IMG/VR virus record: IMGVR_UViG_3300045988_126562 | Length of the DNA stretch: 64,000 bases | Direction: 5' to 3' (one strand) | DNA from: a virus | Shown here: in pieces, positions 10,105-45,900 of the stretch | Numbering within the stretch: the stretch's first letter is position 1 | Layout of the letters: each line of letters begins with the position of its first letter | Made by a program: the position numbers and the translations under genes | The notes under the pieces: model-generated | What the model was told of the DNA's origin: nothing | Databases searched by the model: none | The model's input: the letters and a program-made list of their open reading frames with translations, nothing else

Positions 10105-10128
10105 GTGGGAGTTGAAAGACACTCCCAC
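10105..10128 (+). terminator. Hairpin downstream of the capsid gene (weak terminator/attenuator)
   Basis: 8-bp stem GTGGGAGT (10105-10112) / ACTCCCAC (10121-10128), 8-nt loop, with only a weak T-run after it. Confidence 0.45.
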
Positions 10129-10167
10129 ACCATTTATATGTATATACAAAAACGATAATGAATTAAT

Positions 10168-10995: not shown

Positions 10996-11049
10996 TAAAA
11001 TCATACAGCTATTACACTTAAACAATTATATGAGGCGTTGTTAGTTGAG

Positions 11050-11964: not shown

Positions 11965-11970
11965 TAAACT

Positions 11971-12891: not shown

Positions 12892-12907
12892 AAATCAATA
12901 ACTTATA

Positions 12908-12942
12908 AAAGGCGGAGGGCGAAGAAGCCTTTCGCCTTTTTT
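12908..12942 (+). terminator. Rho-independent terminator
   Basis: AAAGGCGGAGGGC (12908-12920) pairs with GCCTTTCGCCTTT (12927-12939): 13 bp including 2 G-U pairs, with loop GAAGAA. The stem is followed by further T residues. Confidence 0.8.
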
Positions 12943-12955
12943 ATTATATAAAAAT

Positions 12956-13633: not shown

Positions 13634-14319
13634 ATGATTTTAATTATATATATACTATGGCTAATTCTCTATATGGCTTAGAACTAGAACCCGAAGAATT
13701 TGAGGAATTAGGACTTGTAGCTTGGAATTTAATAGGGAATAAGACTGTAAGATTATACAAGTATTGTTCTAGAATATCTTGCGAGGACTTATCTATTAAA
13801 CTTCCCTGCAACTGTGATATAATAGAAGCAGTGACTTACAATCACGAAGATTGGAACTATAGCACTAATAAAACAGTCAATGGAGATTATAACTCTCAGT
13901 TTACTGAACAATATATAGAAGCTAGGAAGTTATATCCTAATCCATTATACGTAAGTGGTAAATATGCTAAATATGAAAGGGTAGGAGATATTCTATATTT
14001 TGATAGGGACTATGGACAAGTAACAATACTATATAAAGGAGTTATTTTAGATGAAGATGGACTACCCCAAGTAACAGAAAAGGAGGCATTAGCTATATCC
14101 ACGTATATAGCCTTTGCCAAAAAGCAAAAACAAGGGTGGATTACTAATAATCAAAATTTAATTCAAATGGCTCAATATTTGTATCAACAATGGCTTAAGT
14201 ATTGTGATTCCGCAAGAGTTCCTATAAGCATTAGCCAGAATGAGATGAATGAGATTCTTGAAGCTAAATCTAGATGGGATAGGAAGATATTTAATAAGGC
14301 ATATAAACCTGTTAAATAA
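13630..14319 (+). CDS. Putative head-tail connector/adaptor-region protein
   Basis: 229-aa ORF whose start overlaps the upstream stop (ATGA at 13630-13633). Assignment is by position only. Confidence 0.3.
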   Translation: MNDFNYIYTMANSLYGLELEPEEFEELGLVAWNLIGNKTVRLYKYCSRISCEDLSIKLPCNCDIIEAVTYNHEDWNYSTNKTVNGDYNSQFTEQYIEARKLYPNPLYVSGKYAKYERVGDILYFDRDYGQVTILYKGVILDEDGLPQVTEKEALAISTYIAFAKKQKQGWITNNQNLIQMAQYLYQQWLKYCDSARVPISISQNEMNEILEAKSRWDRKIFNKAYKPVK

Positions 14320-28900: not shown

Positions 28901-30478
28901 TAATATAGTATTTCCTTTTTCTAAATTTAAAGGTAAGTCTATATCTTCATACATTATAGATACAAAATCTACTGTTCTGTCTGCATCATTTTTAAACATT
29001 AAAACTCCTAGAGCATTTAAGTCCTCATTTTGAATAGCTTTCCAGTTAGGGTTAATTTTATATTTAGTTAGATTAATATTCAGCCACCTATTAAGTGAGT
29101 TGTCTGATACGAAAGATATTTCTTTATTTTCACTATCTTTTAAGTCATTAAATATTTGAGCTATTTTAGAAGTTTGATTTTTTCTATGTTCTCTTAATAC
29201 AGCCAGATAGTTCTTTAATTCTTTTTCTATTTCTTCCCTTGAATTTTTAGATACTTTACGTTCTCCTTTTATAATTCCTTTGATCATAGTAAACTGATAA
29301 CTATTTCCTACTTTAGTTACCATAGCATCATAGGCTTTTTGGAAACTTGCTTCGTCATACCCAGAATTAAAAACATCAAAACCAAACATCTTAGTTACAG
29401 TTTCTACTGTATTCTCAGCTAATTTAGAAGTTAGCGGCTGAGATTCTGTTTTAATATTCAACAGGCCAAATAATTTATACCTAGTAGAAATATTTGGAGT
29501 TAAGATTTTGGATGTCACATTAGAACTAGTAAAAGAATCTCCTGTTCTTCCAAGTTGGATAGGAATTAACTTCAAATTAAAGTTAGTAGGCTTTACTCCT
29601 ATATTCTCTAGCATTGTTTGATAAGTCATTAACTGTGCTAAAGCTGTAGCTTTCTTATCCGGATCCCAGGCATCATAATTAGTTCCAGATACTTTAAAGT
29701 CAATTATGTCTATAGTATTATCATCGTAAACTAATACCATATCCATTTTTCCTCTAATATTATAGGTAGAGTCTTTAAAATCAATACAGGGTTCAATAAA
29801 AGTATATTTTATTTTCTTATTAGCTGTTAATCCCTTTTTAATAGAATATAGTTGTTTAACCGTCTGTAATATAGCTTCATCTGATAATGAGTCAATATTA
29901 ATGTTTTCGCTTCCAAATTCAGCAATTTTTCTTCTTACTTCCTTAGGATACTTAGAATAATCCAAAAATGGATTCATAAATACATCATAGGCTATTTTGT
30001 GTAATCCTTTACCTACTTTCCTTATTTGGTCAAATCTAAGTTTTTCAGAATTTACCTTTTCTTCGATTATAGCTTTCCTTTCTTCTTCTGGCAGTTGCCT
30101 ATAATCGCTTTCTAGAGTTCTTCTATAAGCTCTCTCCCAGTTTTCTAAATTAAATTGTTCTGATTTGTCAGTCAATCCTTGAGTTTTTATAAATTCAAGA
30201 ACTCCTATTGAATTATCATCATAAACATCATCAAACTCATCACTGTCATATTTTGATATCTTAGTTCTTAGTTTTTTTAGATGCTCTTGATTTTTATTGT
30301 TTACTTTGTTGATTATAGCTATATTTTCAGCAGTTAAATCTTTACTAAATCTATAGTCTTCTGCTGTTTCTAGACTAAACTCATCTGGATTATTTCTTAT
30401 ATATGAATCTAATTCCTCTTCACTTGAAAATGAACGAGCTATTTCTTTATATGTTAGTTCATACGTACAGTCTTTCAT
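25997..30478 (-). CDS. Giant protein with N-terminal PD-(D/E)xK (RecB/Cas4-like) nuclease motifs and C-terminal hydrophobic segments
   Basis: 1493 aa containing IRGKMDMVLVYDDNTIDIIDFKVSG (DFK codons 29693-29701) followed by QLMTYQ. This matches the G.iD...iiD(Y/F)K(T/S)G and Q..Y motifs of RecB-family nucleases. Confidence 0.55.
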   Translation of the reverse strand: MKDCTYELTYKEIARSFSSEEELDSYIRNNPDEFSLETAEDYRFSKDLTAENIAIINKVNNKNQEHLKKLRTKISKYDSDEFDDVYDDNSIGVLEFIKTQGLTDKSEQFNLENWERAYRRTLESDYRQLPEEERKAIIEEKVNSEKLRFDQIRKVGKGLHKIAYDVFMNPFLDYSKYPKEVRRKIAEFGSENINIDSLSDEAILQTVKQLYSIKKGLTANKKIKYTFIEPCIDFKDSTYNIRGKMDMVLVYDDNTIDIIDFKVSGTNYDAWDPDKKATALAQLMTYQTMLENIGVKPTNFNLKLIPIQLGRTGDSFTSSNVTSKILTPNISTRYKLFGLLNIKTESQPLTSKLAENTVETVTKMFGFDVFNSGYDEASFQKAYDAMVTKVGNSYQFTMIKGIIKGERKVSKNSREEIEKELKNYLAVLREHRKNQTSKIAQIFNDLKDSENKEISFVSDNSLNRWLNINLTKYKINPNWKAIQNEDLNALGVLMFKNDADRTVDFVSIMYEDIDLPLNLEKGNTILGHLYSDNMSSSNKLVANMGNIELVKLLYLANQLADNYETGELKVLGLSNKSVIDDTVIREKLENNYNILANSVGIETNKVRAGELYARVASLYEAIVNSTSVANYFRANSINPNNFKNDKLSELVNDKAEQLKRLEKLRDALNEHYYKYRFNATEDNSILGYLKSQVDLAISKLSGYSIDFRNETKLSGNILGGQGLRESIENKTLFNSINLRPQDTIPIIQAIYDRVMEANSIIRNKYMAYKVVDRRHTDKFKNSNPGFRNNRFVNNSEIIFKNLIDRSNTRDLRLKDFRYDDTLSKDEKEYLEWYVRDLTRIKYDLTLEEAEDQGYDIFQLPLVRAGALSRIVNNKQNIKEALKDTLGLEDATIDPRMSLGLDSSETDFGKNGLIFDGIFNSFSLSSDPDKRLGMIEKEGLESFDINLERIKDLYNYVVTRKEILDPVIANVSSSLCSYAWNAQLSNGQLELNKPTLDFIVNFIKSSVLDMSLFDKDEKGLWRTVSSIKSVASKMVLGLNVLSMAKEGLVGWWTLFNNANANRFDDSRFGIKEASKAYSMVWQDGFRQIKTITMGEHLNAQYGIANVSEQEMVERLNYYQGEVGRVNNILFFTARSPDFLHRMTVFTAYMLKDGNYDAHKLVGDHIEYNWREDKRFSIYAKYQNTPESEIPKSELETFQEQRSLYLTIWRQMIDEGAVVTNWETGETRSMTDDDKDIPKAYTVLESNKMIQEANMMFGYMDSTNKSMWFRKGIGVILGQFQSYITARGAQYFLTPGTYKTGKWVDKVDSVTGKKLYWKYDDSGKRVETTENTGFPVKDWQGGMMEGIFWSLASLINVVNYIKGGTSREDFLKAWNDPTKLRNLNLFLGDVGGLAFFSILMYLLFGNVKESDKTAIDKNIELVLRNASSEFNIWKTFTGQLELNFVAWGVITRFVTSLKDAISGDSNLPRAFVSNVGAFKPFKPMIYDMFPLDEQE

Positions 30479-33411
30479 TATTTACAGTCTATTTTTAAAT
30501 TATTATTTTGAATTAGGTTAGATTTCACATTAGAAATTTTATTTTCAGTAATGGTTTTATCTAAATTTACTCCTATCGTTAAGTCTTTCAAAAGAGAACT
30601 ATTTCCATCTAGTAATAATGTTTTCATTAGAGTATTCATAAACTCAGAGTCGTCTCTAAATTTATCTGTAGAGTCGGTCCGGAATAGTTGAAAAGCTAAC
30701 TCTTTAATATTTAAATCAGATACTTTTAAGGCTCCATAATCTTGTACCCTTCCCATAAAATAGTCAGTTACTGCATGTACCAAAACTTCTTCAGCATAAT
30801 CATTTGGAGATAACTCTCTGTACCTTTCTTTTAGTTCTTCAAATTGAGTTAAATCAGGTATATTTTTGAGCATTTCAGAATACGCTGCTGGATTAGATAC
30901 TTTATATTGAGCTAATAATAAATGCATCAACTCATGTATAGGAGAATCTTCTGTACTTAAATCTGAGTTTAAGATTATCATTCCACTATGTATAAAAGCT
31001 TTGTTACTTGCCAAATTAGGTCCAAATAATGAGGTAATTTCATCAGAAGTAAACATATTCACTTTGATTCCTGATCTTTTCAAAGAATTAGCTAAAACTT
31101 CAAGCATATTTACGTTAGAATAATTAGGAGCATTTACCTCTACTCTGGAAATTGCCTCTGGAGTATAATGGGCGAATACATAAAATTTTTTATTCTGAAA
31201 GTTATTATAATTTCCAAATTCTTCATTTAGGAAATTTTCATAAGTATCATAAATAGTTTTTTCAAAGATTTCTCTTAGTTCTGGCTCGAAGAATTTCTTG
31301 TATTCTGTTACATTATGTCCAACAAACAAATCATCCTTTACTAATCCAGATAAAGTATTGTAATATACATTATCTCCAATGTATCTTAAGTCTGACATAT
31401 ACAGAGGAGAATGGTTAGAATAAGTACTATTAATCTGAGACTTAGGTATTTCTACATAGGTATTACCTTCGGATAGAATGAATCCATAATTGTTGTCAGT
31501 TATATTTACTAATACCCCGGTCTTTCTTTTATTATCATCAAATAAGAGAGAAAATACTACTCCTTTATTAAATCCTCCAGTATATACATTATACATGGAA
31601 GTATAGGGATTGAGTTTAGGTCTAAATTTAAAATCATAGATATGGTCTATAACCATTTTCATCTTATTCTGTGATACTGTATTAGTTATTGTGACAGTAT
31701 CCCCAGCTTGCATCTCTTTTAAATTGGCAAATAATCCGGGATTCTCACTATTAGTAAATTTTTGAAATTCTTCATTAGTAAAAGACTTATTTATTGTTGA
31801 TTTTGTAAAAGATAAATTTAATTCACTATCCAAGTAAGATAAAAATTCTCCTCTGTTTCTATTAATTGTATAATAATTTGGATAAATATAAGAAGATATT
31901 CCAGATTGATTTGCAGCTTTAACTGCTTGTATTGCAAAATCATCATACACTGTAGAATGTACTGACTCTACTAATACTCCATCAGTGTTTAATTTTTCTA
32001 TTAATTCAGACAATCCCTTTACAACTGATTTAGTAGGAATGGATTTCTGTTTTAGAACTACCCATTTTGGTTTTTTACCTTTCCCTGCATTCTTTCCTGT
32101 TTTTGTTGAAACTTCCGCTTTTATTTCCTTTATTTGTTCATCAGTTAATTCATACTTAGGATTTATTAATATTTTTAAAGGTTTGCCTGACTTTACTGTT
32201 GCAAATTTGGAGGTTGATTCATCTAATATTAGTTCTACATAAGTATCTTTAGATTTTAAAGTACTATTCATTACGTAGTTACTCTCATTTAAATAAATCA
32301 CTTTATCCTCTACTTGATAATCATCCTCCACTTCAATAGAACCTACTTTTGGAATATAAGATTCATCCATTGAAATCTCTGGAGTTTTATATAAATAATC
32401 AATTATATTATTTATTGTTTTATTAACACTAGGATCAAATAATTCATTTACTTCTATATCTTCGTTATTCAATAAATCATTTAATAGCTGTTCGTACTTT
32501 CCAGTTTTATTATCCTCGTAAAACTTTTTAAATTGAATTGGAACATTGTCTGGCAATTGAGAATCTGATACATCAGTAGCACTTTTGTAATTTCTTACCT
32601 TCTGCAATAATCCTATAATATTAGAATTAGTATATTTATGATTATTGAATACTGTTATATTATTTCCATATCCTATTATTGATTTTATTTTATCTCCTAC
32701 AACTGTGGTTCCAGTTATATTTATAGAATTTTCCGTTTTAGATTTTATTATTCCTCCTAACTCTCTTAGTAAATTTTTACTTAATTCACTATCGTCCGAT
32801 TGAGCTAGCAATAGCAACTTTTTGGCAGCTGTTAATTCTGATACTCCTTCCAAATGTTCTCTAAATGGATGATTTGAATCTAGAATCTGCTCTACATAAT
32901 TAGATAAGGTTCTATAAATAGGACTGTTTTTATTAGTAGATTCCTTACTTGCGTATTTAAACGCTAGAGTTTGGGATAAAGAAGATCCTGATTCCATAAT
33001 TGATGGATTTAATAGAATAAAATCCCTTTTAGTTCCTATATAGGCTTTACTTAATTTAGTAGAGTCACTAAATAAAAAAGAATTATCAGTATAATTAAGA
33101 AGATTGGTAATAGCAGAAACTGCGCTAAAGTCAGTAGACTGATTTATTCTAGATAATGTAGCAAGATTTAAACTAGTTGCATTACCTATAGCATAATCTC
33201 CAATATTGGTAGCTATTTGTTCTCCTTTAGCAATAATTTCATTTACATCTTGATCTACAGTATTTATAATATCGTCAATTTCCGATTGAAATCTTTTACT
33301 TCTAACTAAAGTCCCTAAAATACTATCTAGAGATGTGGACGAAATATCCACATCTCTAAAAGTATATTTTTTAGAACCTATTTGTATTTGTACACAACCT
33401 TTCTTACTCAT
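30478..33411 (-). CDS. Large protein with C-terminal HExxH zincin-like motif
   Basis: The ORF track starts at GTG 33414; the first ATG is 33411. HELMH is encoded at 30922-30936 (aa 827-831 of the ORF-track protein), with a Glu 16 residues downstream. Confidence 0.45.
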   Translation of the reverse strand: MSKKGCVQIQIGSKKYTFRDVDISSTSLDSILGTLVRSKRFQSEIDDIINTVDQDVNEIIAKGEQIATNIGDYAIGNATSLNLATLSRINQSTDFSAVSAITNLLNYTDNSFLFSDSTKLSKAYIGTKRDFILLNPSIMESGSSLSQTLAFKYASKESTNKNSPIYRTLSNYVEQILDSNHPFREHLEGVSELTAAKKLLLLAQSDDSELSKNLLRELGGIIKSKTENSINITGTTVVGDKIKSIIGYGNNITVFNNHKYTNSNIIGLLQKVRNYKSATDVSDSQLPDNVPIQFKKFYEDNKTGKYEQLLNDLLNNEDIEVNELFDPSVNKTINNIIDYLYKTPEISMDESYIPKVGSIEVEDDYQVEDKVIYLNESNYVMNSTLKSKDTYVELILDESTSKFATVKSGKPLKILINPKYELTDEQIKEIKAEVSTKTGKNAGKGKKPKWVVLKQKSIPTKSVVKGLSELIEKLNTDGVLVESVHSTVYDDFAIQAVKAANQSGISSYIYPNYYTINRNRGEFLSYLDSELNLSFTKSTINKSFTNEEFQKFTNSENPGLFANLKEMQAGDTVTITNTVSQNKMKMVIDHIYDFKFRPKLNPYTSMYNVYTGGFNKGVVFSLLFDDNKRKTGVLVNITDNNYGFILSEGNTYVEIPKSQINSTYSNHSPLYMSDLRYIGDNVYYNTLSGLVKDDLFVGHNVTEYKKFFEPELREIFEKTIYDTYENFLNEEFGNYNNFQNKKFYVFAHYTPEAISRVEVNAPNYSNVNMLEVLANSLKRSGIKVNMFTSDEITSLFGPNLASNKAFIHSGMIILNSDLSTEDSPIHELMHLLLAQYKVSNPAAYSEMLKNIPDLTQFEELKERYRELSPNDYAEEVLVHAVTDYFMGRVQDYGALKVSDLNIKELAFQLFRTDSTDKFRDDSEFMNTLMKTLLLDGNSSLLKDLTIGVNLDKTITENKISNVKSNLIQNNNLKIDCK

Positions 33412-36400
33412 CACAGGTTAATTTAATATCAAGTTTATTATCTGCAAACAAATTCATAAATTTAACATAGATATTATCTGCCTTAATTTTATATACTCTG
33501 GAAACTCCATCTCTAAAGAATAGAGAAGTAGGATTGTTTTCAATAAACAAATCCTGAACCTTCCCATCATGATAAATAACTTTTTTACCAGCTACATATT
33601 GAACATCAAATCCACTACCAGTTTCACCTGCAAATCTAATAAGTAGATCGTCTTCGTCAATATTAATATCCATATTAGGAAGATTAGCTTCAAACTCCGT
33701 AAACTTAGAAATAATTGAATTTTTTGGACTAGACTTAATAGCATCCTCAAAAATCCTGGTCATAGTATTTGGACCAAAACCATTGTTGCTGACAAGAAGA
33801 TTATATGCGAAGAATAAGTCCTCTATTCTTACATTGTTATAAGTATCATCCTTAATAGAATTAAATCCAGAAACATAATCGTTAAATAGATTTTCATTCA
33901 TCTCGCTGGATATGTTATTTAAGTCTATAGGGAGTTTGAGAAAATCCCTCACTCCAAAAGAAGTTTTAGTATAACCAAACATCAAATCAGATAAAAATCT
34001 GTTAGTGGGATATTTGTTTTGCAACTCAGGTATGATATAGTTCTCCATGATTCTTTTAAATGAAGCTCTTCCAAATACATCATTTAATTGAAGCACTTCT
34101 TCCTCTCTTTTACTTGTTGATCCATCAGCATTATAATAAGGAAGTACTTCGCCAACCATAGGAATCTCAAAACTCAAATTATCAAAAAATTCACTAATAG
34201 TTACATCATCCACAAATCTCTTAATAACCCTCATTGTATCGGGCTTAATAGTCTTAACTATGCCCCTGTGAACTAACAGATCAGCCATTTTAGAAAACGT
34301 TCTATACTTATAACTAAAAGTATTAAGAATATCCTCATTCAATGCTAACGCTTGATACATTTTACTAAAGTGAGGTGATGATGAAATAGCAGCAAGTACA
34401 TTAAATGTAGTTTTGCTTTTTTCATATAGATTAATTTGATGTTGTCTATATTCAGGATCTTTAATGAACTGAATTAAATCAAAATTCTTTCCAGTTTTAG
34501 ATTTAATGAAATCTTCTCTTCTCTTAATAAAATTATAAAAATCATTTCTAAGAGTTTTTAGTCCCTGATTTAATCCACACCATTGAGAGTATTCAGAAAT
34601 TTCATCTCCTCCTTCCACAAGGTTATTCAATAATTCAAGAGTATTATTTATATCACCTTTAATAGTAGCCAACTGATTTTTTCTGTTTATAGACTCTGTA
34701 AGGAATCTATTAACTAAGAAAGCAGTTTGCTTAAAATCCCTTCTATTAGCTACAAATCCTTCTTCTCCTAATTCATCTGCTATTTCTCTTAATTGCTCAA
34801 TCTCATCTTGAGAAAGAACTCTACTAGCAGCAACAGAGAAATCTGATTCATGTTCAGTTATTTTATCAATTAAAGTATACAGATAATCGGAACCAGAATC
34901 CTTTATAAACTTCTTAAATTCAGCAGCCTTAGTAGGTATTTGGGAGTCTATTTTGGTGTTTAATACGTTTATTACACTATTAACAAAATCCTTTCCAACA
35001 TAATCAGCAATATCAGCTCCTTCTTGGTAAAATTTTATAGCCCTGTTAATATTAGAATATTTACTTTCTTCGTTAAACAACGACCGTTGAGCTTTATTAT
35101 TAACCAAAGAGATAACACTAGATGTCATAAACTTTGTAATGGTAGTAAATGGTACTCCAGAACTAATCAAGTAAATATATACCTTAGCCAAATCTCCAGA
35201 AGCGTTGATTTTTTTCAATACTAGCTCTTTAGCATTATCGGTAGAAATATTCAACATAACTCCCAAAGTTTCATAAACCTCTTCTTGTAAGCCTCCTTTC
35301 TTAATTTTGTCTACCAATTCTGAGATAGCAGAACCATCTGCTGCACTCAGATTTAAATTAGGTAAAGTAGGAGTAAACTTAATTTCAAATGGTTTACCTT
35401 CGCTATCATATGCTGTATAACTAGATGAGCCTTTAAGCTTTAACTCATATTTTTCTACGTTTGCTGTATCAGATAACTTAAGTAATTCCACTAGTAAGTT
35501 TAGGTGCTCCATAGACTTATCAGATTGTCTAAAGTCTTCCTTTCTAGCTTCTAAAACTAATTTAGCTTCTTCTTCAGATAATCCACTATTTATCAACTCA
35601 GATAAAGATAGTTCTTCAAGTCTAGACAGAACTACATCCAATTCAGGCTCTACTCCTAAATTCACAGAAATAGTTGCCAGGAAATTATCCAATGCTTGTT
35701 TAGCCATAGGAACAACTTTAGATAGATTGTCTTGATAGAAAACAAGTAAAGATGAAAACGCCTTAATTCCATTTGCAAAAGCTCCAATTGAAGATTTACC
35801 TACAGCATTTTCCTTTTGGGCAACCATTTTAGCACCAGGATTCTCATTTGATGATACTTCCCCAAATCTACCTGCTGTTGATTTAGAGGCCGCTTCACGA
35901 GCAGGGTCAATAGTTAATGTAGCAGTTTCAGCTAAGAAGTTTCTAGGATCAGCTCCTACTTTAAACATATTATTAAATATCTTATTCTTTACTCCTTCGT
36001 TTTTATTATATTGGAATTTATTATGAGTATTGATAATATTTAACAAATAGTCACTAGCTCCAGAAACTATGTTAGTTTCTTTTATTTTTTCTAACATTTC
36101 AGCTAATCTGTCCAAAAATACTGAATATTGTTTACCTTCGTATAAAGATTCTAAATCATTATACTCAGACACATCAATTCCCGATTCATCTACAGTATAA
36201 GTTTTTCCATTTGGTAGTGGAAGCTCTTTAGACTTATTAAATAAATCAGTAGTTTCCCACATAAAATAAGGAGACCAATTAATATATACTCCGTTATCAC
36301 CTATACTAGAGTTCATAACATAGATCTTATCAATATCAAAGTCGGAACCCTCATATATCAACATTTCTATTGGAGTATATACGATATTAGTATCAGTGTC

Positions 36401-39400
36401 TATAAAAGAAGCTATCTTCATATTCATGAATGACTGCATAGACTGAGCAGGAATACGAGCAGCAATTACTTTTAAAGCTTCATTGAAAGATTGATTCATC
36501 ATAAAAGCTCTCTTAGTATCCTCAGCTTCAGGATTTATCTTTGAGATATATTCAAAAGCTTCTTGATATGATTTAATGGGAACTTTTATTTTGTTCAAAG
36601 ATCCATACAGTTTAAGAAGATTAGATAATCTCTTAAAATTTCTACTTAAAGTCTCTTCATCATTATATTCTTTATCAAAATTAGAGAAGTTAAAGTTGTT
36701 AGTATAGAAGCTTTCAGTATTCCATATATTCTTAATATCCTCATTGGAAAATCCCGTAACCATTTCTACAGTTTCTCCATCTGGAGTAGTAACATCATAG
36801 AAGGCCATATTTTTATTAACAGGGTATTTAATATCATCATTAATTCTCCTAATAAGGCCCTCATTTGCGGTTATTATTTGGTCCTGAATATTTTTTTCAG
36901 AAACAGTATATCCTGCGCTTCTAAGTTTCTTGATAATATTAGGATCATATGAGAAGTTTAACTTATAGTTATTTCCAACAAAATATAGATTATAAAACTT
37001 AGAATCAATTGGATTGCTCCTTCTTTCTCTTAACTTATTCTTAAAAAACTCCACATCAATATTACTAATAGTATCTCCAGGAGATAACAAGAATTTAGAA
37101 GCAAATGGTTTACCTACTGCCAATTCATTAGGAGTATATTCTGATGTAATAATATCAGCTTGAGCAGAGTCATTTCTATATTTAATTGGAACTGGATACT
37201 TACCAGATTGAATACTCTTCATATCCTCTTGGATGGCAACTTTAATATAGCTCTTTAATTTATCTATATTTCCCTCCTTTAAATAAGGAATCAAATCAAC
37301 AGTTCTAGATTCTCCCTTATCATTGATAGTTAGATACTTAGCCTTAATAAGTTCATTAACCTCTATAAATACCTGATCCAAGTATTGGGGCTGCTCTAAG
37401 TTAAATTCTTTTACATACTGTTTCAGCTTACTAGATAACAAGACAGAATCCAAATCATAGATATCAAATGTAGAATCCTCTACATTTACTTGATCTGGAT
37501 TAACAGTAACTACATAATTTTGTGCTCTTAGATTTCTACCTTTTGAGGCAAGTTTCTTTACAGTTTGACCTCTCATAGATTTTACTTCTTCCAAAGTGAT
37601 ACTAGGAGTATTACCAAACGTAGTTACTAACGTTCCTACTTGTACTGCTTGACCATTTAATTCAATCCAATCTCCGCACCTTATTTGGGATACTGGAACT
37701 TCTACATCTAGAGATGTTAACGTCTCCTTAATATTAGATGTTTCATTTTTTTCCGCTATCCTAGAAAAATCCTGCTCAGTAATAACATTACCATTATAGT
37801 CATACACAGAATATAAATCAAAACAAGGAGTCATAACTCCAGTAAATCCAGAGAACTTACGTTTAATTATATCTTTATTAAATCCGTTTCTGAAATTAGT
37901 TTCAAACATTCCTAATAGGTTATTATCATCAAAAGGAATGGGTTGAGTAATTATGTTACTTTTTGCTAGCTCTTCTTGGATTCTATCCAAATAAGCAGAT
38001 GCAATACTAATTCTATCTTCTGAATCATTAAATACTCTACACAGTGCTCTACCTAGAATGGTGTTAAGTTCTTGCCTTCCTACTTCTGTATTAATATCCC
38101 ATTTCCTATACAGATCGAGTCTATCTGAAATAGTTTGTCCAATATCAGACAAGATTTTGATAGCGATATCATGAGTATATGAACCTTGTTCCAAAGCAGA
38201 AATAACTTGAGTCATTTCGGATACTTGCTCATTTTCCACATCATGTTCCGCCGTTAATTGAATAATTAAGTATGCTGGATCAAACTCAGATGATAAAAGA
38301 GGACTATCAAAATATTCAAACAAATCATGTCCAGTGGCATCAACTACTTTAGTATCAGGAATTGATTCTAAATAAGTATTTAAAGCCTCATCTAAATTAT
38401 GTTTCCACTCTCTAGCATTAGCATCATCAGTTCCTCCCCTCTGCCTATTTCTTTCAATAAAATTTTCTTCTGACATAGTATAGATTTCATCAATTACTAT
38501 TTCATCAGAATTATTTATAGCGTCCAGTAAAGATAAATCGGAAAAGAATATAGGAACATTTAAATCAAGATTCTCTTCTAATAAACTAAGTAAAAACTCT
38601 TGATAAGCTGGGTCTCTTCTTTTCTTAAATTGTTGAGTAGTTTCTCCTTCTAGCTTATTTTTTGCAATATAATTCTTTATTTTGTCTCTATTATAATCGT
38701 CGAAACTAATAAGATTATATCCCATTTTAGAAGCAACAGTTTTTCCTAAAGTTGGGTGTCCAAAAATAACTCTACTATTAGGATTAATTCTTTCCTGAGT
38801 AGAATTAAAGTATAAGCTTGCAGGATTAGGATTTACTATACCGTTTTTAACTCCAGAAGCATTAGCTAAGTAATGGATATCAGAATATTTCATTGGTTGA
38901 TAGTAAGTTCTCCCTCCTTCTATTTTTAAGTGCTTCTCAGGGATAAGCTTATTACTATACTGAGGAACATCTCTAATATCCTTAATTTTAGATATTTCTG
39001 CTAATTTAGGATTACTTAGACGTCCAAATTTAACTAAATCATTATATTCTGCTATTTCATCACTATCTTCATAGATATTCACATCATTAGCAATTCTAGC
39101 TACTTGGTGTATAGAATCTTCACTAGGCTCTAGTTTACCATTAGATAGTGAACAAGAATATGCCCCACCAAATGCTTTCCAAATATCATAATTACTATTT
39201 AAGTGCAGAATTTTAGTTTCAGTCTCAGAACCGATAATATTTCCTCTACTGTCTACCTCTATTACTTGGGCTTTATAAATATTATCTACCTTTCCATTTA
39301 CTACATCAGTTGATACCTTTTCTAAACTAGTTAACTCAAAATACCTATTCAAATCTAATTCTGGATCTATATAATACACAGATTGAAAATAGGGAGATAT

Positions 39401-42400
39401 ATCTAAATTAGGTATAACCCAAGGTCTGTCAGACATATTTTTCAACATAGTAGCCTTATTAACCTTACTTGTTTCAGAGCTGCGGATACTAGAATTAGTA
39501 ATAGAGAATGTAGCACATTTAAATAAAGTAGAGGCCCCATATTTACTTAAACTAGAGTATCCTAAAGGCTTTTCATGAACAGAACTATGAGTCAACTCAG
39601 GAGAAGAATTTTGAAACCAAATAGAGAAAAACGGATTGGTATGAATAGCACCATCTTGTGTGGTAGCGTCTTCATTATTCCCTGTTAAACTCATATTTGG
39701 GGCTGTTAAATCATCTATAACAGATATATTGAGATATTGAGGAATACCGTCTTTCTTATTTTTTATCAAAGTATGTCCAGTACCACCATAAATAACCCCA
39801 CGCTTACTAAATGCTACAGTTCTATTAGCTTCTTCTATTTTAATGGATTTAGAGTCGATACCAGTAGCTTGTACTTTAGTAGGATGTAAAAATGGAAGTC
39901 CTACAGTCGCTAGATTATAATTATTGCTCACAATATTATCTAATCTTTGGAACTTGTACAGTTCGGGATTCAATACTACGGTTATACCTAAATCTTTTTC
40001 GGCACTATATAAGGGCATAGCTGCATTTTTGATTAACTTACCATTTTTATCAAATGCTAGATAACCTCTTAATTCCTTAGTAGATTTATTAACCCAAATG
40101 TCTTCGTAGGTAGAACCATTTTTAGTTAATTCCTTAACTACAGATTCTGACAGTCTGTCGGATAAATACTTTGTCTGGTCCTCGAACTTATTGTAACCAG
40201 AGGTAATAATTTTATTTTCTAAACCATTAGCTAAAACAGTACTTAGTCTAACACCTCCACTTCTTAAAGTCTCTGCATATAATGTTTCCTCAATTCTGTT
40301 TTTTTCGTTAAATATATCTCTATTATTAGAGGTATATCTTTTAAATTCAAAAGCTAATAAATTATTAAAGATGTACTTGCCAGCTTTTTTATTCCAAGTA
40401 AAATGAATTTCTGGTATAATTGATATATCTTCTCCCTTAGATTGAAGAAGTTTTATAGCTACATAAATATCATTCTTTGATAATTTATTTACTAGAGGTT
40501 CATATTCTTCCCATTTATTATAATTAGCTTCCGGATATTTTTTTGGATATAAAGAATGTAAAGCTCCAAAGAATTTTTTATAATCTTCAACTATGGTCTT
40601 TTTTAGATTAATCATTTGACTTCTCATAGATTCATAGTAGAGATTGTCCAACTCGTCAGTGCTTAATTCAGAAAAGGATTTATCGTTAATTATGGTTTCT
40701 CCATCAATATTAACATAAGTGAACTTCTCATCAGTCCTGATAGCTTTAGCTTGAATTTTGCCTTTATCAGCATAAACAGCAGGCTGAATAGACACAAACT
40801 TCTTTTTATTAGCAAAATATCCTGATACAATACCATCGTATATAAGTTCTGCATCACTCATATTTTTTATTTGCTGAGAATCTCCATCGTATCCAATAAA
40901 TTCTGTTTTAAAGGTATTTCTCATCATACCGTAGATCTTATTATTCATAAATAAGTTATGTCTAAGGGTATGATTGGGGTTTTCTACTACCTGTTTAAAT
41001 AAGTTTCTAAACAGATATTTATCACCTTCACTTAAGGAAGTTAATCCAAATTTCGGAAGAGAAGCACCTTCAGAGTTTTTTACATTACTTTGAGTGGAAT
41101 CCTTACTAATATAAGACTTAGCTCTAGCCAATACTTCAACTGCATCTAATGCTCCGTTGAATCCATCAACTCTAACTGCCCCTAAATCATTGCTAAACCA
41201 AGACCTAGTGTTGTCTGAAAATGTTCCATCTATTACTTTTCCAGAGGCTATATTATAGGTAATGTTACTACCCAATTTGTTTGACAGGAAAATGTTAGAG
41301 GCTAAATTTAGCAATTTAAATACACTAGATGGAGAAGACTCATTAGCTATAAGTAGTCCAGCATAAAAATCCTTATCAAATCTTTGTTTAAAAACATCAT
41401 TGAAAAATTCTACATACTCTGGATTAGAAAACTTAGCAATTACACTTTTTACATTAGAGGGAGTATTATTTTTGTTGAAATTTATAACATAATTGTCTTC
41501 TCCTATCTTAAAAGATAAAGATTGTATTTTACCATTAGTAGTGTTGAATACTACATTATATTTTTCAACAAGGCTTGAGTAATCATCTTTGATAGCATGA
41601 AGAATCAAATTTCTAGATACATCACTTTTTGTCTTAGTTAAATTGGTGCTAGACAATAAGGCTGTTTTATATGTTTCTTCCTCTTCGTCCCATATAGTTT
41701 GAGTATACTCCATAGAAGCATTTTTGTTAATATGATTAACAATCATAGAATATAAATTATTCTTTGTACTTCTAGTATTAGCTGTATTTTTAGAATATAA
41801 ACTAATATCTTTTGGACCAAATACATTATTATAAACGGTATAAAATGTATTTAACAAGATAGTATCATTTCCAGTAAAATAATTTCTAGGATTTTTATAA
41901 ATTTCATCCATAGTAGCCTTAAGAGCCTCTCCAGGATACTCTCTTAACATTTTACTATAATTAGGATTTTTATCTTTGATAATTCTAATAAGATTATTAA
42001 AATCCCTAAATAGAATAGAATTACCAGTTAGTACACCTTTAGCATTAATTTCTGGAAGTGATGAAATATATTGCTGAACCGATTTATTAGTATGAATACC
42101 AATGGAAGATGCTTCAAATGAATCATCCCATCTTTGTTTTACATGGAGCGATCCAGCTTTATATTTTGATCCTCTAGAAAATAGTTCTTTGCTGTTTACC
42201 TGAATAGGATCAATTACAATGATCCCATTAGCATATTTTTGAATAGCAGAATCAAAATTAGTAAGCAATAAATATTTATTAAACTCTCCACGAATACCTT
42301 TAGAAGGAAAATCATATTTGCCCTCATCCAAGTAAGAATAAAAATTCAGTCTAGCAGCATTAACTAAATCATTATAAGCAGCCTCATTAAATTTAATTCC

Positions 42401-42949
42401 ATCATAGATATTCTTGGGTTCAATATTTAGATATTCTGCTAATGATACAGCTAGATCATTTTGTAAATCTAATAGAGATGCATTTAAATTATACTCTGTA
42501 GCTACTTCATCTCCAGTAACAGGGTTAACTGCACTTGAATTTACAAGAACATTCTGTGCCCATTTGGAGAATGCTCCTCTATCTGTACTTTTAGAAAAGA
42601 TAGAATCCAATCCAGAAGATATTCTAGGAAACTCCTGGTATTCTCCAGAATTGTATTTTGTATTATCTAAAGAGGAACGAGAGGGTGTACTCTCGTTCCA
42701 ATATTTAGTTATTTTATCATCTAAATCGTTTGTATTAAGTTCGACCTCATCTTCCTCTGCCGATTCGATTATTGCCTCAGTTAGGATAGACAATACCTTG
42801 TCATTTATAGGAAGCTTTCCTTCGTTAGTTTGGGATTTAATAGTTTTTACTAACTCCTTTAATTCCAGATCATTGTATTCTTCAATTTCCAGATTAAGAA
42901 TAGCATCAATTACTAAATCGCTAGTTAAAATGTTACAACTTTTACTCAT
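33404..42949 (-). CDS. crAss-type virion RNA polymerase polyprotein (two-barrel RNAP, DFDID loop) with embedded P-loop kinase-like module
   Basis: 3181 aa. AARIPAQSMQSF...YEGSDFDIDKIYVMN (DFDID codons 36329-36343, aa 2203-2207) parallels the beta-prime NADFDGD loop. Walker A GHPTLGKT lies at 38738-38761 (aa 1397-1404). Confidence 0.8.
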   Translation of the reverse strand: MSKSCNILTSDLVIDAILNLEIEEYNDLELKELVKTIKSQTNEGKLPINDKVLSILTEAIIESAEEDEVELNTNDLDDKITKYWNESTPSRSSLDNTKYNSGEYQEFPRISSGLDSIFSKSTDRGAFSKWAQNVLVNSSAVNPVTGDEVATEYNLNASLLDLQNDLAVSLAEYLNIEPKNIYDGIKFNEAAYNDLVNAARLNFYSYLDEGKYDFPSKGIRGEFNKYLLLTNFDSAIQKYANGIIVIDPIQVNSKELFSRGSKYKAGSLHVKQRWDDSFEASSIGIHTNKSVQQYISSLPEINAKGVLTGNSILFRDFNNLIRIIKDKNPNYSKMLREYPGEALKATMDEIYKNPRNYFTGNDTILLNTFYTVYNNVFGPKDISLYSKNTANTRSTKNNLYSMIVNHINKNASMEYTQTIWDEEEETYKTALLSSTNLTKTKSDVSRNLILHAIKDDYSSLVEKYNVVFNTTNGKIQSLSFKIGEDNYVINFNKNNTPSNVKSVIAKFSNPEYVEFFNDVFKQRFDKDFYAGLLIANESSPSSVFKLLNLASNIFLSNKLGSNITYNIASGKVIDGTFSDNTRSWFSNDLGAVRVDGFNGALDAVEVLARAKSYISKDSTQSNVKNSEGASLPKFGLTSLSEGDKYLFRNLFKQVVENPNHTLRHNLFMNNKIYGMMRNTFKTEFIGYDGDSQQIKNMSDAELIYDGIVSGYFANKKKFVSIQPAVYADKGKIQAKAIRTDEKFTYVNIDGETIINDKSFSELSTDELDNLYYESMRSQMINLKKTIVEDYKKFFGALHSLYPKKYPEANYNKWEEYEPLVNKLSKNDIYVAIKLLQSKGEDISIIPEIHFTWNKKAGKYIFNNLLAFEFKRYTSNNRDIFNEKNRIEETLYAETLRSGGVRLSTVLANGLENKIITSGYNKFEDQTKYLSDRLSESVVKELTKNGSTYEDIWVNKSTKELRGYLAFDKNGKLIKNAAMPLYSAEKDLGITVVLNPELYKFQRLDNIVSNNYNLATVGLPFLHPTKVQATGIDSKSIKIEEANRTVAFSKRGVIYGGTGHTLIKNKKDGIPQYLNISVIDDLTAPNMSLTGNNEDATTQDGAIHTNPFFSIWFQNSSPELTHSSVHEKPLGYSSLSKYGASTLFKCATFSITNSSIRSSETSKVNKATMLKNMSDRPWVIPNLDISPYFQSVYYIDPELDLNRYFELTSLEKVSTDVVNGKVDNIYKAQVIEVDSRGNIIGSETETKILHLNSNYDIWKAFGGAYSCSLSNGKLEPSEDSIHQVARIANDVNIYEDSDEIAEYNDLVKFGRLSNPKLAEISKIKDIRDVPQYSNKLIPEKHLKIEGGRTYYQPMKYSDIHYLANASGVKNGIVNPNPASLYFNSTQERINPNSRVIFGHPTLGKTVASKMGYNLISFDDYNRDKIKNYIAKNKLEGETTQQFKKRRDPAYQEFLLSLLEENLDLNVPIFFSDLSLLDAINNSDEIVIDEIYTMSEENFIERNRQRGGTDDANAREWKHNLDEALNTYLESIPDTKVVDATGHDLFEYFDSPLLSSEFDPAYLIIQLTAEHDVENEQVSEMTQVISALEQGSYTHDIAIKILSDIGQTISDRLDLYRKWDINTEVGRQELNTILGRALCRVFNDSEDRISIASAYLDRIQEELAKSNIITQPIPFDDNNLLGMFETNFRNGFNKDIIKRKFSGFTGVMTPCFDLYSVYDYNGNVITEQDFSRIAEKNETSNIKETLTSLDVEVPVSQIRCGDWIELNGQAVQVGTLVTTFGNTPSITLEEVKSMRGQTVKKLASKGRNLRAQNYVVTVNPDQVNVEDSTFDIYDLDSVLLSSKLKQYVKEFNLEQPQYLDQVFIEVNELIKAKYLTINDKGESRTVDLIPYLKEGNIDKLKSYIKVAIQEDMKSIQSGKYPVPIKYRNDSAQADIITSEYTPNELAVGKPFASKFLLSPGDTISNIDVEFFKNKLRERRSNPIDSKFYNLYFVGNNYKLNFSYDPNIIKKLRSAGYTVSEKNIQDQIITANEGLIRRINDDIKYPVNKNMAFYDVTTPDGETVEMVTGFSNEDIKNIWNTESFYTNNFNFSNFDKEYNDEETLSRNFKRLSNLLKLYGSLNKIKVPIKSYQEAFEYISKINPEAEDTKRAFMMNQSFNEALKVIAARIPAQSMQSFMNMKIASFIDTDTNIVYTPIEMLIYEGSDFDIDKIYVMNSSIGDNGVYINWSPYFMWETTDLFNKSKELPLPNGKTYTVDESGIDVSEYNDLESLYEGKQYSVFLDRLAEMLEKIKETNIVSGASDYLLNIINTHNKFQYNKNEGVKNKIFNNMFKVGADPRNFLAETATLTIDPAREAASKSTAGRFGEVSSNENPGAKMVAQKENAVGKSSIGAFANGIKAFSSLLVFYQDNLSKVVPMAKQALDNFLATISVNLGVEPELDVVLSRLEELSLSELINSGLSEEEAKLVLEARKEDFRQSDKSMEHLNLLVELLKLSDTANVEKYELKLKGSSSYTAYDSEGKPFEIKFTPTLPNLNLSAADGSAISELVDKIKKGGLQEEVYETLGVMLNISTDNAKELVLKKINASGDLAKVYIYLISSGVPFTTITKFMTSSVISLVNNKAQRSLFNEESKYSNINRAIKFYQEGADIADYVGKDFVNSVINVLNTKIDSQIPTKAAEFKKFIKDSGSDYLYTLIDKITEHESDFSVAASRVLSQDEIEQLREIADELGEEGFVANRRDFKQTAFLVNRFLTESINRKNQLATIKGDINNTLELLNNLVEGGDEISEYSQWCGLNQGLKTLRNDFYNFIKRREDFIKSKTGKNFDLIQFIKDPEYRQHQINLYEKSKTTFNVLAAISSSPHFSKMYQALALNEDILNTFSYKYRTFSKMADLLVHRGIVKTIKPDTMRVIKRFVDDVTISEFFDNLSFEIPMVGEVLPYYNADGSTSKREEEVLQLNDVFGRASFKRIMENYIIPELQNKYPTNRFLSDLMFGYTKTSFGVRDFLKLPIDLNNISSEMNENLFNDYVSGFNSIKDDTYNNVRIEDLFFAYNLLVSNNGFGPNTMTRIFEDAIKSSPKNSIISKFTEFEANLPNMDINIDEDDLLIRFAGETGSGFDVQYVAGKKVIYHDGKVQDLFIENNPTSLFFRDGVSRVYKIKADNIYVKFMNLFADNKLDIKLTCDE

Positions 42950-42952
42950 ATA

Positions 42953-45900
42953 TTAACATTTAGATTTATTATCTTTATTAAACAAGTTTTCTATTGCTCT
43001 TTTTCCTTTTGGTCCAACTTTTTTATCTGTTATTTTCCTTATATATTCCGTTAATAGTTCTACTTTGTCATTTATATTAGGAGTACTATTAACTGTTAAT
43101 ATCAGATTACTTACATCTTCTGTAATAGTTGTCTTAAAGGACTTTTGTAAGAGCTTATCTAGATCACTAGTAGTTATATTTTTAGTAGAATCAGTAATAG
43201 GAACGGTTGCATTAGTTTCTGAAAGTATAGTCTTAGAAAGTCTAATGTTTCCAGTCTTATCTAAATTTATCTTTATTGCTATTCCTCCATTTTCTGATTT
43301 AATCATTATAGAATCATCTTGGTATACAAAATTCAAGTTATCATCTGCTAATGAATTTAAAATATCAGGATTGATGGAAGAATTTAATAGGAAATTCTTA
43401 TTTAAATCAGTTCTAATAGAAGATAACTGATTGTTTTTCCATTGCAAAGATACCAATTTAGGAGAACTATCCCAAACTAATTTCTTAATACGTTGATAAT
43501 TATTATTTATATATGTATTTAGATTCTCATTTAGAACATCATTTGTCCATGATTGTTCTATTTGGAATTTACTTGTAATCTCGTTAAATTGACTTATTAA
43601 TTCAGGATCTATATTAGCTTTTAATTCATCTAATTTTTTAGAGTATAGTTCTTGTATATCGGTGTTAAGCTCATTAGTATTTGAATTTACTTCTATAGAG
43701 CTATAAGGTATAAATGCCCTTCTCGGTAACACTTGGCGATACATATAAACTTTGTCCTTTGTAGCTGCTGCTTTAATATATCCTTCAATATATTTAGCTT
43801 CTACATCTCTTCCTTGTGTTAAGATCCCATTGTCAAATAGACCAGAGGCTTCTAAGGAAGTTCTAAATAAGTCTTGTTTTTCTCCTTCTAATTTACTAAA
43901 AAACTCTACTAACTTTAAGTCTTTAATAGTATAAAATAACAAATTAGAGGAAAATAAATCAGACACACTTTCAAGTGTCCTGCCAGAGAATGTATCAGAT
44001 ATTTTAGATAAGGATTCAAACATAGTTTGAGCCTTTTCTGATAATGCCTGCTCTCCAGTTATATTAGGGTTTGGACTAATTAAATTTGAGTCCTTGTATA
44101 AACTACTTTCAGGATTAGATAATTCCTTGAACAGAGTTATTAATTTTCTATCTTTAAATTTGTTAATAAATTTTATTTCTAGATCATTGAACTTAGGAAT
44201 GCTAATTTCATCTAGTAATTGATCTAGAGCAGGTATATCAGCTTTATTTATAGCTCTTTGATAATTAGTTAAAGATGCTTCACTGATAACCATTTCCTTA
44301 CTTTCAGCAGGAATCTTTTCTGCGAATAAAGCCAATATGGACCTAAGTAACCTATTATTTTCTTTAGTAGATTCTAATGGTTTCTTTATAATTTTTCTAT
44401 AAGTTCCTCCTATTTTATCAGCTTCTTTGTTAAATTCTTCTGCCTCTTTATTGTATTCTTCTATAGATTTGTTATACTCATTTAAAGCATTTTCATTCTC
44501 CAATAAATATTGAAGTTTATACATAGAAGCTATCAATCTAGGGGCTAAAGCAGTAGGAACAAATTTCCTTAGTTTAAAATAATCAGTTTTATGATTTTTA
44601 CTGCTTTCTAGCAAAGTATTTAATTGACTAAAGAAATCATTGTATGAATAAGGAATTATAGATACTTTTCTTTTTTGTATATCGAATATTTCTGAGCCAT
44701 AGGAATTTAACATCTCAGATTCAGTTATTCCTGGAGTATCAGAAACTAAAACATATGGAGTTCCTTTGAAAGAACCTTCGGATTCAAAATAAATATTAGA
44801 AATAGTTAGTTCTGGATTAAGAGACTGTAACTTTTCCAATGTCAATCCATACTCATTTGTTTCGGATGAAGATATTAATCCTCTTACTTGTATATTATCA
44901 AAATTTAAGTTTAAATATTTGGGGTTGGGATAGTCTCCATTTATTAATTTCTTAAATTCTGAGTTTCCTACATTACTATTTTCAGAAATATCAGCTACTG
45001 TGATATCATAAGTTTGCCCGTCTAATCCTGTTAATTGTAATACAATTCTAGAAAAGTTTTTGGAAGTTCTATTATAGTTTAAATTGTCCAACTGATAATC
45101 AGTATCAGCATTTAGTTTAGATATTTTAAGCTTTAACTGACCTTTTTCTAGTATGTCCATCATGCCTAAGAAGTTATTTCTATCCCCTGTTAGTAATTCA
45201 GTGAATTTACTAAATACATTGATGTAATTAGTACCTTCCTTTAATTGCCTTAAGAAATTTTCCTTGTCTTCTGCATAACTAAATCTCTTCATTATAGACC
45301 AAGCTTTATACTCTGGGGTAGAAATTATCTCATCTTTAGACATAGGAGAAGTTAATACAAGATTCAAGTCTTCCCTATTAGAATTTGGAATAAAGGTATT
45401 CTCTCCAGTTCTAGACAATCCTATATGCTTAGATGAGAAGTAAATAGCAAGATTTTCCTTTTTAAATTCTGGAGTATCGTCTTCTTTAGTTACTTCTTTT
45501 TCTCTTTCTACAAGGTTCTTTTCTATAGCTGTTATGTTCTTAGGTTTATCTAGTTCATTAGCCTCCATTTTTTCTAAATCAGAATTAATTGTTTCTGTAT
45601 TAGAATTGGTACTTCTTTTGTAAATAGAAGATATAACTTCCTTATAATTGTTAATATCAGATTGTTGTAATCCAGAATCACTAGAGTATCCCATCCTAAT
45701 ACTACCTGCTATTGGGACATTATTACCTTCCATTATAATTATAGAGCCATCAGAAGATCTAGTAATATGGGTATAAAAAGCCCTAAGAGTTCCTAAGAAA
45801 GAGTCATTAATTTGAGTGTCATTAGACCCTCTTACTTTATCATATTTAACATCTACTACTACGTATTTAAATTCTGAACCCTGAACGTCATCTGCTTGCT

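Follow-up and report, generated by a model that had tools for sequence, protein, structure and literature searches.

A predicted P-loop kinase module within the putative virion RNA polymerase of a crAss-like phage

What is a kinase-like segment doing in the middle of a giant phage RNA polymerase? The question is raised by a 64,000-nucleotide stretch of viral DNA (IMG/VR record IMGVR_UViG_3300045988_126562, referred to here in its whole length as the window), in which an open reading frame (ORF) of 3181 amino acids (aa), resembling the virion RNA polymerases of crAss-like phages, had been noted from the sequence alone to contain a P-loop kinase-like module. The crAss-like phages are among the most abundant human gut viruses, and little is understood about how their infection proceeds in its first minutes. 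Overall, we assign a probability of roughly 0.6 to the reading that the segment is a catalytically intact, mobile kinase domain in a virion polymerase, with the 5'-hydroxyl (5'-OH) of a nucleic acid or nucleotide as the leading guess for its acceptor.

The module and its predicted fold

The interval 38345-38782 falls within the 3181-aa ORF and corresponds to aa 1390-1535, as the sequence-only reading had stated (the peptide quoted there starts at aa 1393). The gene lies on the minus strand, and a plus-strand reading of the same interval is full of stop codons. The extent given originally, aa ~1390-1535, was correct, and the boundaries obtained from the orthologue alignment are wider, at aa 1385-1547. 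The module and its motifs are located as follows.

38309..38797, minus strand: P-loop kinase module, aa 1385-1547 (orthologue alignment, AlphaFold2, Foldseek and family search)
38738..38761, minus strand: Walker A motif or P-loop, GHPTLGKT, aa 1397-1404, with G1402, K1403 and [TS]1404 invariant (109 sequences)
38687..38707, minus strand: SFDDYNR at the end of strand 2, aa 1415-1421; Asp1417, the putative general base, is invariant (alignment)
38537..38551, minus strand: strand 3, IFFSD, aa 1467-1471, with invariant Ser1470 and Asp/Asn1471 (alignment)
38435..38461, minus strand: lid helix and loop, FIERNRQRG, aa 1497-1505, with invariant Arg1500 and Arg1504 (alignment; helix 115-124 of the model)
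38402..38407, minus strand: Trp1515-Lys1516, a near-invariant pair specific to this family, in the helix that follows the lid (alignment)

When the module segment was used as a single query, nothing significant was obtained in Pfam, PHROGs or PDB sequences, and a word-indexed protein search returned only 2-3 relatives, with a profile too, so that an exhaustive search of representative sequences was needed. A phmmer search with aa 1380-1560 (181 aa) against 1.84 billion cluster representatives yielded 113 proteins at E<=1e-3, six of them at E<=1e-10. The family alignment, comprising 108 extracted matching segments and the window copy (109 sequences), shows seven invariant positions: G1402, K1403, [TS]1404, D1417, S1470, R1500 and R1504. 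H1398, P1399, L1475, F1497, W1515 and K1516 are near-invariant (Trp in 107/109 sequences at W1515, Lys in 102/108 at K1516), and the family signature reads GHPxxGK[ST] ... IDFD(d)(d)Y ... LFxS[DN]xxLL ... FDKVI ... FxxRxxxRG ... WK. The Walker A motif and the Arg-rich, lid-like motif proposed from the sequence alone are both borne out by this alignment. The proposed Walker B-like strand, hydrophobic and ending in Asp, exists as IFFSD, with the amendment that the invariant residue is Ser1470 and that position 1471 is Asp or Asn. With the family profile, a copy 99% identical to that of the window was detected in a 3182-codon frame of a second, 145.6 kb record (L003, IMGVR_UViG_3300045988_105784); no second copy of the module was found in the window or in the locus of the orthologue MT835470.

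Structure prediction from the single sequence gave a predicted local distance difference test (pLDDT) score of 52 and was unusable, so the AlphaFold2 model was built from a 35-sequence alignment, with a pLDDT of 91.7 and a predicted template modelling score (pTM) of 0.86. Its secondary structure runs strand 1, P-loop, helix, strand 2, four helices, strand 3, helix, strand 4, lid helix, long helix and strand 5, and it presents the features of lid-containing P-loop kinases, namely a Walker A motif, five strands, a helical subdomain between strands 2 and 3 and an Arg lid. In a Foldseek search of the PDB, 49 of the 50 matches listed were P-loop kinases, the remaining one being a designed nanoparticle protein; among the matches listed were shikimate, adenylate, thymidylate, deoxynucleoside (deoxycytidine), dephospho-CoA and guanylate kinases, with shikimate kinase 3vaa as the best match (E 2.5e-4) and a value of E 4.6e-4 for AK1. 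Shikimate and adenylate kinases are the nearest solved folds, sharing strand order and lid position with the predicted module. Among predicted viral structures, a homologue from the phage cr124_1 ranked first, followed by zeta-toxin, guanylate, nucleotide and polynucleotide kinases. That the module is an autonomous, divergent domain of P-loop kinase fold is well supported by the model, in agreement with the small-kinase layout first read from the letters. Neither of two outcomes that would speak against that proposal was seen: GK[TS] is invariant in all homologues, including four related polymerases, and AlphaFold2 and Foldseek both give a P-loop kinase fold. A chance motif was rejected on the basis of the 113 homologues, the invariant residues and the confident fold, and a Walker-B-type ATPase or motor is not favoured, as the fold is of kinase type with a lid and an invariant Ser stands in place of an acidic Walker B after strand 3.

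The host polymerase and the spread of the module

The host ORF is identified by the following features.

33404..42949, minus strand: RNA polymerase ORF, 3181 aa, host of the kinase module (ORF call and gp66 similarity)
36329..36343, minus strand: DFDID catalytic metal-binding motif, aa 2203-2207 (same as DFDID of phi14:2 gp66)
19301..24103, plus strand: crassvirus muzzle protein gene (Pfam crAss_MUZ, E 2e-23)

The DFDID motif at aa 2203 is letter for letter the catalytic motif of phi14:2 gp66, whose RNA synthesis needs every Asp of DFDID (bioRxiv 10.1101/2020.03.07.982082). Around this motif, aa 2157-2212 align with gp66 1314-1370 at 42% identity over 59 residues (pairwise blastp, E 3e-6), and a second, weaker blastp match lies downstream of the DFDID region with order kept. 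The order of giant genes in the window is that of phi14:2 g068, g067, g066 and g065, and the presence of the crAss_MUZ gene marks the window as crAss-like phage DNA. Because of the identical DFDID, the local gp66 similarity, the gene order and the nearby muzzle gene, the 3181-aa ORF is identified from sequence as a putative crAss-like virion RNA polymerase of the gp66 type. The polymerase profile and fragment searches reached no 6VR4-type or other polymerase entry in the PDB, a 5-sequence alignment of the polymerase, when compared with gp66 by hhalign, matched over just 2 columns, which is meaningless, and the whole 3181-aa ORF as a single query gave nothing significant in Pfam, PHROGs or PDB sequences. 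As regards the release by proteolysis suggested in the sequence-only reading, a motif search of this ORF found no HExxH motif. Polymerase and kinase are the domains recognised in the ORF, with no further ones. The protein differs from gp66 in length, with ~840 additional residues upstream of DFDID; gp66 has 2180 aa and is without the kinase module. The phi14:2 gp66 is a packaged polymerase that is ejected along with the DNA, and by analogy we infer that the window polymerase would be packaged and ejected in the same way.

Comparison with related polymerases, the check that the sequence-only reading had called for, indicates that the module is an insertion into a polymerase loop ~650 residues upstream of DFDID, a conclusion well supported by the alignments. 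Four related polymerases (P0003, P0004, P0005 and P0007, with 38-45% identity to the window protein) have the module at the same site. The window junction reads ...ASLYFN, module, DSPLLSSEFD..., and in the MT835470 orthologue (25% identity) the flanks are joined without it (...NINGDSSWFD followed directly by DSPLMEMEFN...), so that precisely the segment aa 1385-1547 is lacking and the junction is clean. Searches of phi14:2 gp66, g065 and g067 with the family profile gave no match even at E 10. As neither a GC (guanine-cytosine) jump nor flanking repeats were found at the module, the insertion is not recent.

The reverse history, in which the polymerase clade had the module from the start and MT835470 lost it, without any insertion having taken place, draws on the fact that the sole module-less orthologue aligned is MT835470 itself, which is distant. 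It is improbable in view of the clean junction, the module-less state of the characterised gp66 and the occurrence of the same domain at unrelated positions of many unrelated giant proteins as well as in stand-alone ORFs. Taken together, a real P-loop kinase fold and a mobile insertion are predicted with high confidence.

Going beyond what was noted at first, the homologues indicate that the module is not peculiar to the window polymerase and is a mobile domain of many giant phage proteins. It is found in N-terminal, central or C-terminal position in proteins of 143 to 5253 aa, and in stand-alone ORFs; counts of carriers given here are of cluster representatives at the 50% identity level rather than of independent evolutionary events, and many of these proteins are known from short metagenomic contigs as fragments. 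Of the carriers found, about 19 resemble RNA polymerases: the window ORF, its four close relatives, nine proteins of 3591-5253 aa with the motif G[ST]D[FY]DxD, P0066 (which resembles the window ORF around the active site), three viral-contig ORFs and the L003 copy. A search with a 9-sequence sub-alignment found 17 viral loci in IMG/VR, three of which have the polymerase motif, with the kinase ~840-1100 residues downstream of it. The differing kinase positions among polymerase-like carriers therefore point to repeated fusion of the kinase to virion-type polymerases. In a scan of 185,579 genomes of bacteria and archaea, which relied on two short peptide patterns only, the same sub-alignment found no relatives, and the family is apparently phage-restricted, having so far been seen only in phage and metagenome sequences. 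Neither Pfam nor NCBIfam has a model for it, phrog_4182 (function unknown) covers 14/35 members, and no source gives a functional name.

Other enzymatic domains accompany the module in many of these proteins. Pfam scans of ~90 carriers revealed the ADP-ribosyltransferase (ART) domain ART-PolyVal in 12 proteins, along with PD-(D/E)XK nucleases, an AlkB-like dioxygenase, cpYpsA and DUF7831. With a custom profile seeded from the Pfam-confirmed regions, an ART-PolyVal-like domain was detected in 32/128 carriers, and in ~20 carriers it follows the kinase within <=80 aa. In this kinase-ART cassette (examples are P0039, P0042, P0063, P0066, P0067, P0070, P0082, P0083, P0089, P0094, P0101 and L016), the ART domain reads DTIFPDSKVKDIVYHG ... 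VFEPEQIHILGSK, and a QQKQQAQQLYSQYL-type linker precedes it in several carriers; the window polymerase has the kinase without the ART half. In five carriers the module is accompanied by a second kinase of canonical AAA_33 or Zeta_toxin type, in a separate domain (for instance P0032, aa 1154-1308), and two kinases in one polypeptide suggest different jobs. Zincin segments are another recurring neighbour: in cr124_1 (Suoliviridae) a 2068-aa protein has the module close to its N-terminus and also contains a HELAH zincin motif.

These combinations are those of polyvalent proteins. Iyer et al. 2017 (PMC5512222) describe N4-like virion polymerases to which peptidase, ART, lysozyme and RNase domains are fused, and in the passages searched the kinases named for polyvalent proteins are of Ser/Thr/Tyr type or zeta-toxin-like, not of the module family. 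The likeness to the systems in that text extends to multidomain proteins of giant size encoded in the virion gene block, to a virion polymerase carrying extra enzymatic domains and to the co-occurrence of ART-PolyVal, zincin motifs, PD-(D/E)XK and AlkB, and the carriers described here combine the module with all of these as well as with AAA_33 and polymerase motifs. The difference is that the polymerase in question is predicted to be an unrelated, two-barrel crAss-like enzyme and not the T7-like N4 polymerase.

Nearest kinases and the candidate acceptor

In order to place the module among known kinases, the family profile was compared by hhalign with six references: the kinase domain of T4 polynucleotide kinase (Pnk; 100% identical to X03007), E. 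coli Adk, AroK, GntK and Tmk, and the AAA_33 domain of P0032. The hhalign probabilities were as follows.

T4 Pnk: 85%, score 38.8, 101 columns, all motifs spanned
P0032 AAA_33 domain: 19-28%, score 26.1-28.4, 75-76 columns
E. coli Adk: 7%, score 23.5-24.0, 24-25 columns
E. coli Tmk: 5-6%, score 22.7-22.8, 31-32 columns
E. coli AroK and GntK: ~1%, score 15.5-18.1, 14-28 columns

T4 Pnk appears as the closest of the six kinases compared, the one that the module most resembles in sequence. Against a 22-sequence Pnk/AAA_33 profile, the family profile gave 89-90% (E 2e-6), and the comparisons with the single T4 Pnk sequence and with this profile have E-values of 2e-6 to 6e-6 over ~100 columns. The kinase activity of T4 Pnk depends on Lys15, Ser16, Asp35, Arg38, Asp85 and Arg126, with Asp35 acting as general base on the 5'-OH, Arg38 contacting the 3'-phosphate of the acceptor nucleotide and Arg126 the beta phosphate of the nucleoside triphosphate (NTP) (PMC2831316). 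These residues are paired by hhalign with K1403, T1404, D1417, R1421, D1471 and R1504, and the motifs pair likewise, GCPGSGKS with the Walker A, IISD (S84-D85) with IFFSD and KRNSKRG (R122/R126) with the lid. Module and T4 Pnk/AAA_33 share a collinear arrangement of GxxGxGK[ST], an Asp ending strand 2, S-D after strand 3 and a lid RxxxRG. Of the six essential residues, five are matched by conserved positions in the family: those of K15, S/T16, D35 and R126 are invariant, and that of D85 is Asp or Asn.

Several observations weigh against the module being a Pnk-like enzyme. The comparison covers only six reference kinases, the probability for Pnk stays below the usual comfort level of 95%, and the region of the strand-2 Asp is placed differently in the profile-profile alignment with Pnk. 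The counterpart of Arg38 is Arg in the window copy but varies in the family (Lys 54, Ala 30, Asn 10). True T4 Pnk homologues all carry AAA_33 (PF13671), whereas no match to this domain was obtained for the window segment and only sub-threshold ones for 5/35 members (best E 0.0023); the separate canonical AAA_33 or Zeta_toxin domains of five carriers are a further point of this kind. No 3'-phosphatase or RNA ligase Pfam domain was found in ~90 carriers or in the neighbouring giant ORFs. In the Foldseek results the top ranks are held by small-molecule kinases, no Pnk structure is among the 50 PDB matches listed, and TM-scores of ~0.4-0.5 and identities of 12-19% separate the module even from its nearest solved folds. 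Because the family stays below the AAA_33 threshold and no phosphatase or ligase partner was found in the proteins scanned, the module is not filed here as a polynucleotide kinase. It differs from T4 Pnk, too, in having its own signature (GHP in the P-loop, an invariant Ser and the W-K pair) and in its setting, T4 Pnk being a small repair enzyme with a fused 3'-phosphatase and the module a part of giant virion proteins.

The invariant strand-2 Asp and the profile similarity to T4 Pnk point towards a hydroxyl group as acceptor and away from a nucleoside monophosphate, and for the same reasons the supply of NTPs, one of the functions suggested in the sequence-only reading, is the least favoured of its guesses. 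By analogy, Lys1403 and Thr1404 would hold the beta and gamma phosphates of adenosine triphosphate (ATP) and Mg, the lid residues Arg1500 and Arg1504 would stabilise the phosphate in transfer, Asp1417 at the end of strand 2 would deprotonate the acceptor hydroxyl, and the acceptor would be held by the subdomain of four helices that separates strand 2 from strand 3. We regard an active phosphotransferase as likely. Its likeliest acceptor is predicted to be the 5'-OH of a nucleic acid or nucleotide, in the style of T4 Pnk, an assignment that leads the field while remaining tentative. Since polymerases of this type, as known for gp66, are packaged and ejected with the DNA, the kinase, a mobile module of giant virion-delivered polyvalent proteins inserted into the crAss-like two-barrel polymerase in one lineage, would enter the cell with the ejected polymerase at the very start of infection, where it might process RNA or DNA ends as a counter-defence or in the service of the polymerase.

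The alternative that survives best, though we consider it rather unlikely, is a small-molecule kinase whose acceptor is a nucleoside, a nucleotide or an NAD (nicotinamide adenine dinucleotide)-related metabolite, and which would feed the injected polymerase, restore a pool depleted by defence or inactivate a signalling nucleotide. It accounts for the leading Foldseek results, among them kinases of the shikimate, adenylate, thymidylate, deoxynucleoside and dephospho-CoA types, for weak Pfam matches that include AAA_18, Cytidylate_kin2, SKI and CoaE, and for the frequent pairing with NAD-consuming ART domains, which would suit an acceptor related to NAD or ADP-ribose. The sequence comparisons run the other way: Adk, Tmk, AroK and GntK reach 1-7% in hhalign against 85% for T4 Pnk, and the helical acceptor subdomain of shikimate and adenylate kinases is a different one. 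A Pfam scan of 35 members at E<=1 found 39 families, and statements on absence concern the 25 listed; the ADK and thymidylate-kinase families are not among these 25 of 39. SKI was found in 1/35 members (E 0.046) despite the top Foldseek rank of shikimate kinase, which is also the best match of the family profile in PDB sequences, at E 0.35, and no curated kinase family reaches threshold on the module. Nucleoside-monophosphate kinases do not require a general base, and yet Asp1417 is invariant.

A second alternative, that the module binds ATP without catalysis or is decaying, and serves as a structural spacer, a nucleotide-sensing polymerase switch or an effector remnant, has a slim chance. In P0004 and P0005 the acceptor-binding helical subdomain is shortened by deletions, the W-K pair is lost and the module has 36% identity to the window copy, compared with 46-55% for the flanks, which tells against an intact kinase, as does the ability of the distant orthologue MT835470 and of gp66 to work without the module. 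The window copy is itself off-consensus at several positions, with Val1465 in place of Lys (97/109), Asn1460 of Ala (91/107), Ala1538 of Thr (95/108) and His1541 of Tyr (95/108). These positions are well conserved but are not catalytic invariants, and given them the acceptor site of the polymerase-embedded clade may be modified. The window copy nevertheless has every invariant residue and a full-length helical subdomain, its identity to the P0003 module (49.7%) equals that of the flanks (50-53%), and GKT and both lid arginines are kept in all polymerase-embedded copies, including P0004 and P0005, which also still have S-D.

A zeta-toxin-like kinase that phosphorylates uridine diphosphate (UDP)-N-acetylglucosamine and weakens the cell wall at entry would share the Asp after strand 2, would agree with the zeta-toxin-like kinases that Iyer et al. 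2017 (PMC5512222) report for polyvalent proteins and with a zeta-toxin-domain protein as second match in the viral fold library, but is very improbable, as PF06414 is not among the 25 of 39 Pfam families listed, the canonical AAA_33/Zeta_toxin domains beside the module in five carriers suggest distinct roles, and hhalign to such a domain (P0032 AAA_33) gives 19-28%.

The preferred reading of a 5'-OH kinase can be carried one step further, to a 5'-end kinase that cooperates with the virion polymerase or with the ART that follows it, converting 5'-OH to 5'-phosphate ends that are then ADP-ribosylated on the phosphate. Some ART-fold enzymes (Tpt1/PARP) add ADP-ribose to 5'-phosphate ends. This extension is speculative and we give it low odds; were it true, the phage would inject a machine for modifying ends, whether to mark or protect its early transcripts or the ends of its genome or, alternatively, to block host repair of cleaved RNAs, and the polymerase of the window's phage would hold the kinase half only.

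Virion polymerases and other ejected giant proteins are already known as carriers of effector domains. What appears to be new is the kinase family, the fact that it was repeatedly fused to two-barrel polymerases, and how often it is paired with ART. The sequence-only reading knew of no description of such a module in crAss-like RNA polymerases, and in agreement with this no P-loop or polynucleotide kinase in these polymerases was found described in the crAss-like and polyvalent-protein papers searched (Yutin et al. 2021, Iyer et al. 2017, the preprint on gp66 and a 2022 NAD and ADP-ribose (NAD-ADPr) survey). A predicted active kinase in an injected polymerase would be a second enzymatic activity delivered at entry, and would extend the polyvalent-protein idea, known for N4-like polymerases, to unrelated two-barrel polymerases. 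At the 50% identity level the family numbers at least 113 clusters, with no functional annotation in Pfam, NCBIfam or PHROGs, and its domain is small (~165 aa) and confidently predicted, with clear putative catalytic residues. Recurrent polymerase fusion and ART pairing offer testable hypotheses on phage counter-defence or RNA-end chemistry.

Neighbouring genes and polymerase-gene introns

Two further features lie in the giant genes on either side of the polymerase gene.

30922..30936, minus strand: HELMH zincin-type motif, aa 827-831 of a 978-aa ORF at 30478..33414 (motif regex)
46310..46756, minus strand: SF1 (superfamily 1)-helicase-like P-loop region, aa 1527-1675 of a 2793-aa ORF at 42953..51334 (Pfam AAA_19, AAA_30)

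The 978-aa ORF sits directly downstream of the polymerase gene. A Pfam scan of it detected no family, its aa 782-907 find matches in three carriers of the kinase, P0024, P0040 and P0093 (E 1e-7 to 9e-10), and its peptidase-like segment is reminiscent of the peptidase domain found alongside N4-like virion polymerases. In the 2793-aa ORF, upstream of the polymerase, the helicase-like region is recognised by AAA_19 (E 1.3e-7) and AAA_30 (E 6e-7) at aa 1527-1672, and a further Walker A, GRDASGKS, is seen at aa 214. This SF1-helicase-like region is context, separate from the kinase module. P0099, a module carrier that is also of 2793 aa, was considered as this neighbour and rejected, being a different protein. 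An antisense ORF of 180 aa with a TTG start (window 42414-42956, plus strand) overlies the 5' end of the polymerase gene and is probably spurious.

In cr124_1 (L001, NC_055899.1), the kinase-bearing protein is encoded at 7719-13925, with the module followed by HELAH, and the gene before it is also giant and is annotated 'DNA helicase'. Many in-frame stops are encountered in this interval under the standard bacterial code, which fits stop-codon reassignment, as reported for some crAss-like phages.

The polymerase gene of the window has no intron (motif site 36329-36343). In relatives the gene is interrupted inside the catalytic motif, between ...GSDF and DIDK..., as seen in MT835470 and at the C-termini of P0003, P0004 and P0005. 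MT835470.1 (L002, reverse complement) has at 12250-13310 a gap of ~1 kb in the polymerase gene with a LAGLIDADG-type ORF (LLGDG ... WYMDDG); a sub-threshold Rfam group I intron match (23 bits, E 0.0026) falls at 12283-12489, and after the gap the frame continues with DIDKAYIMGYD. Yutin et al. 2021 describe polymerase ORFs of the Zeta group that are broken within DxDxD, and LAGLIDADG introns in the same gene block.

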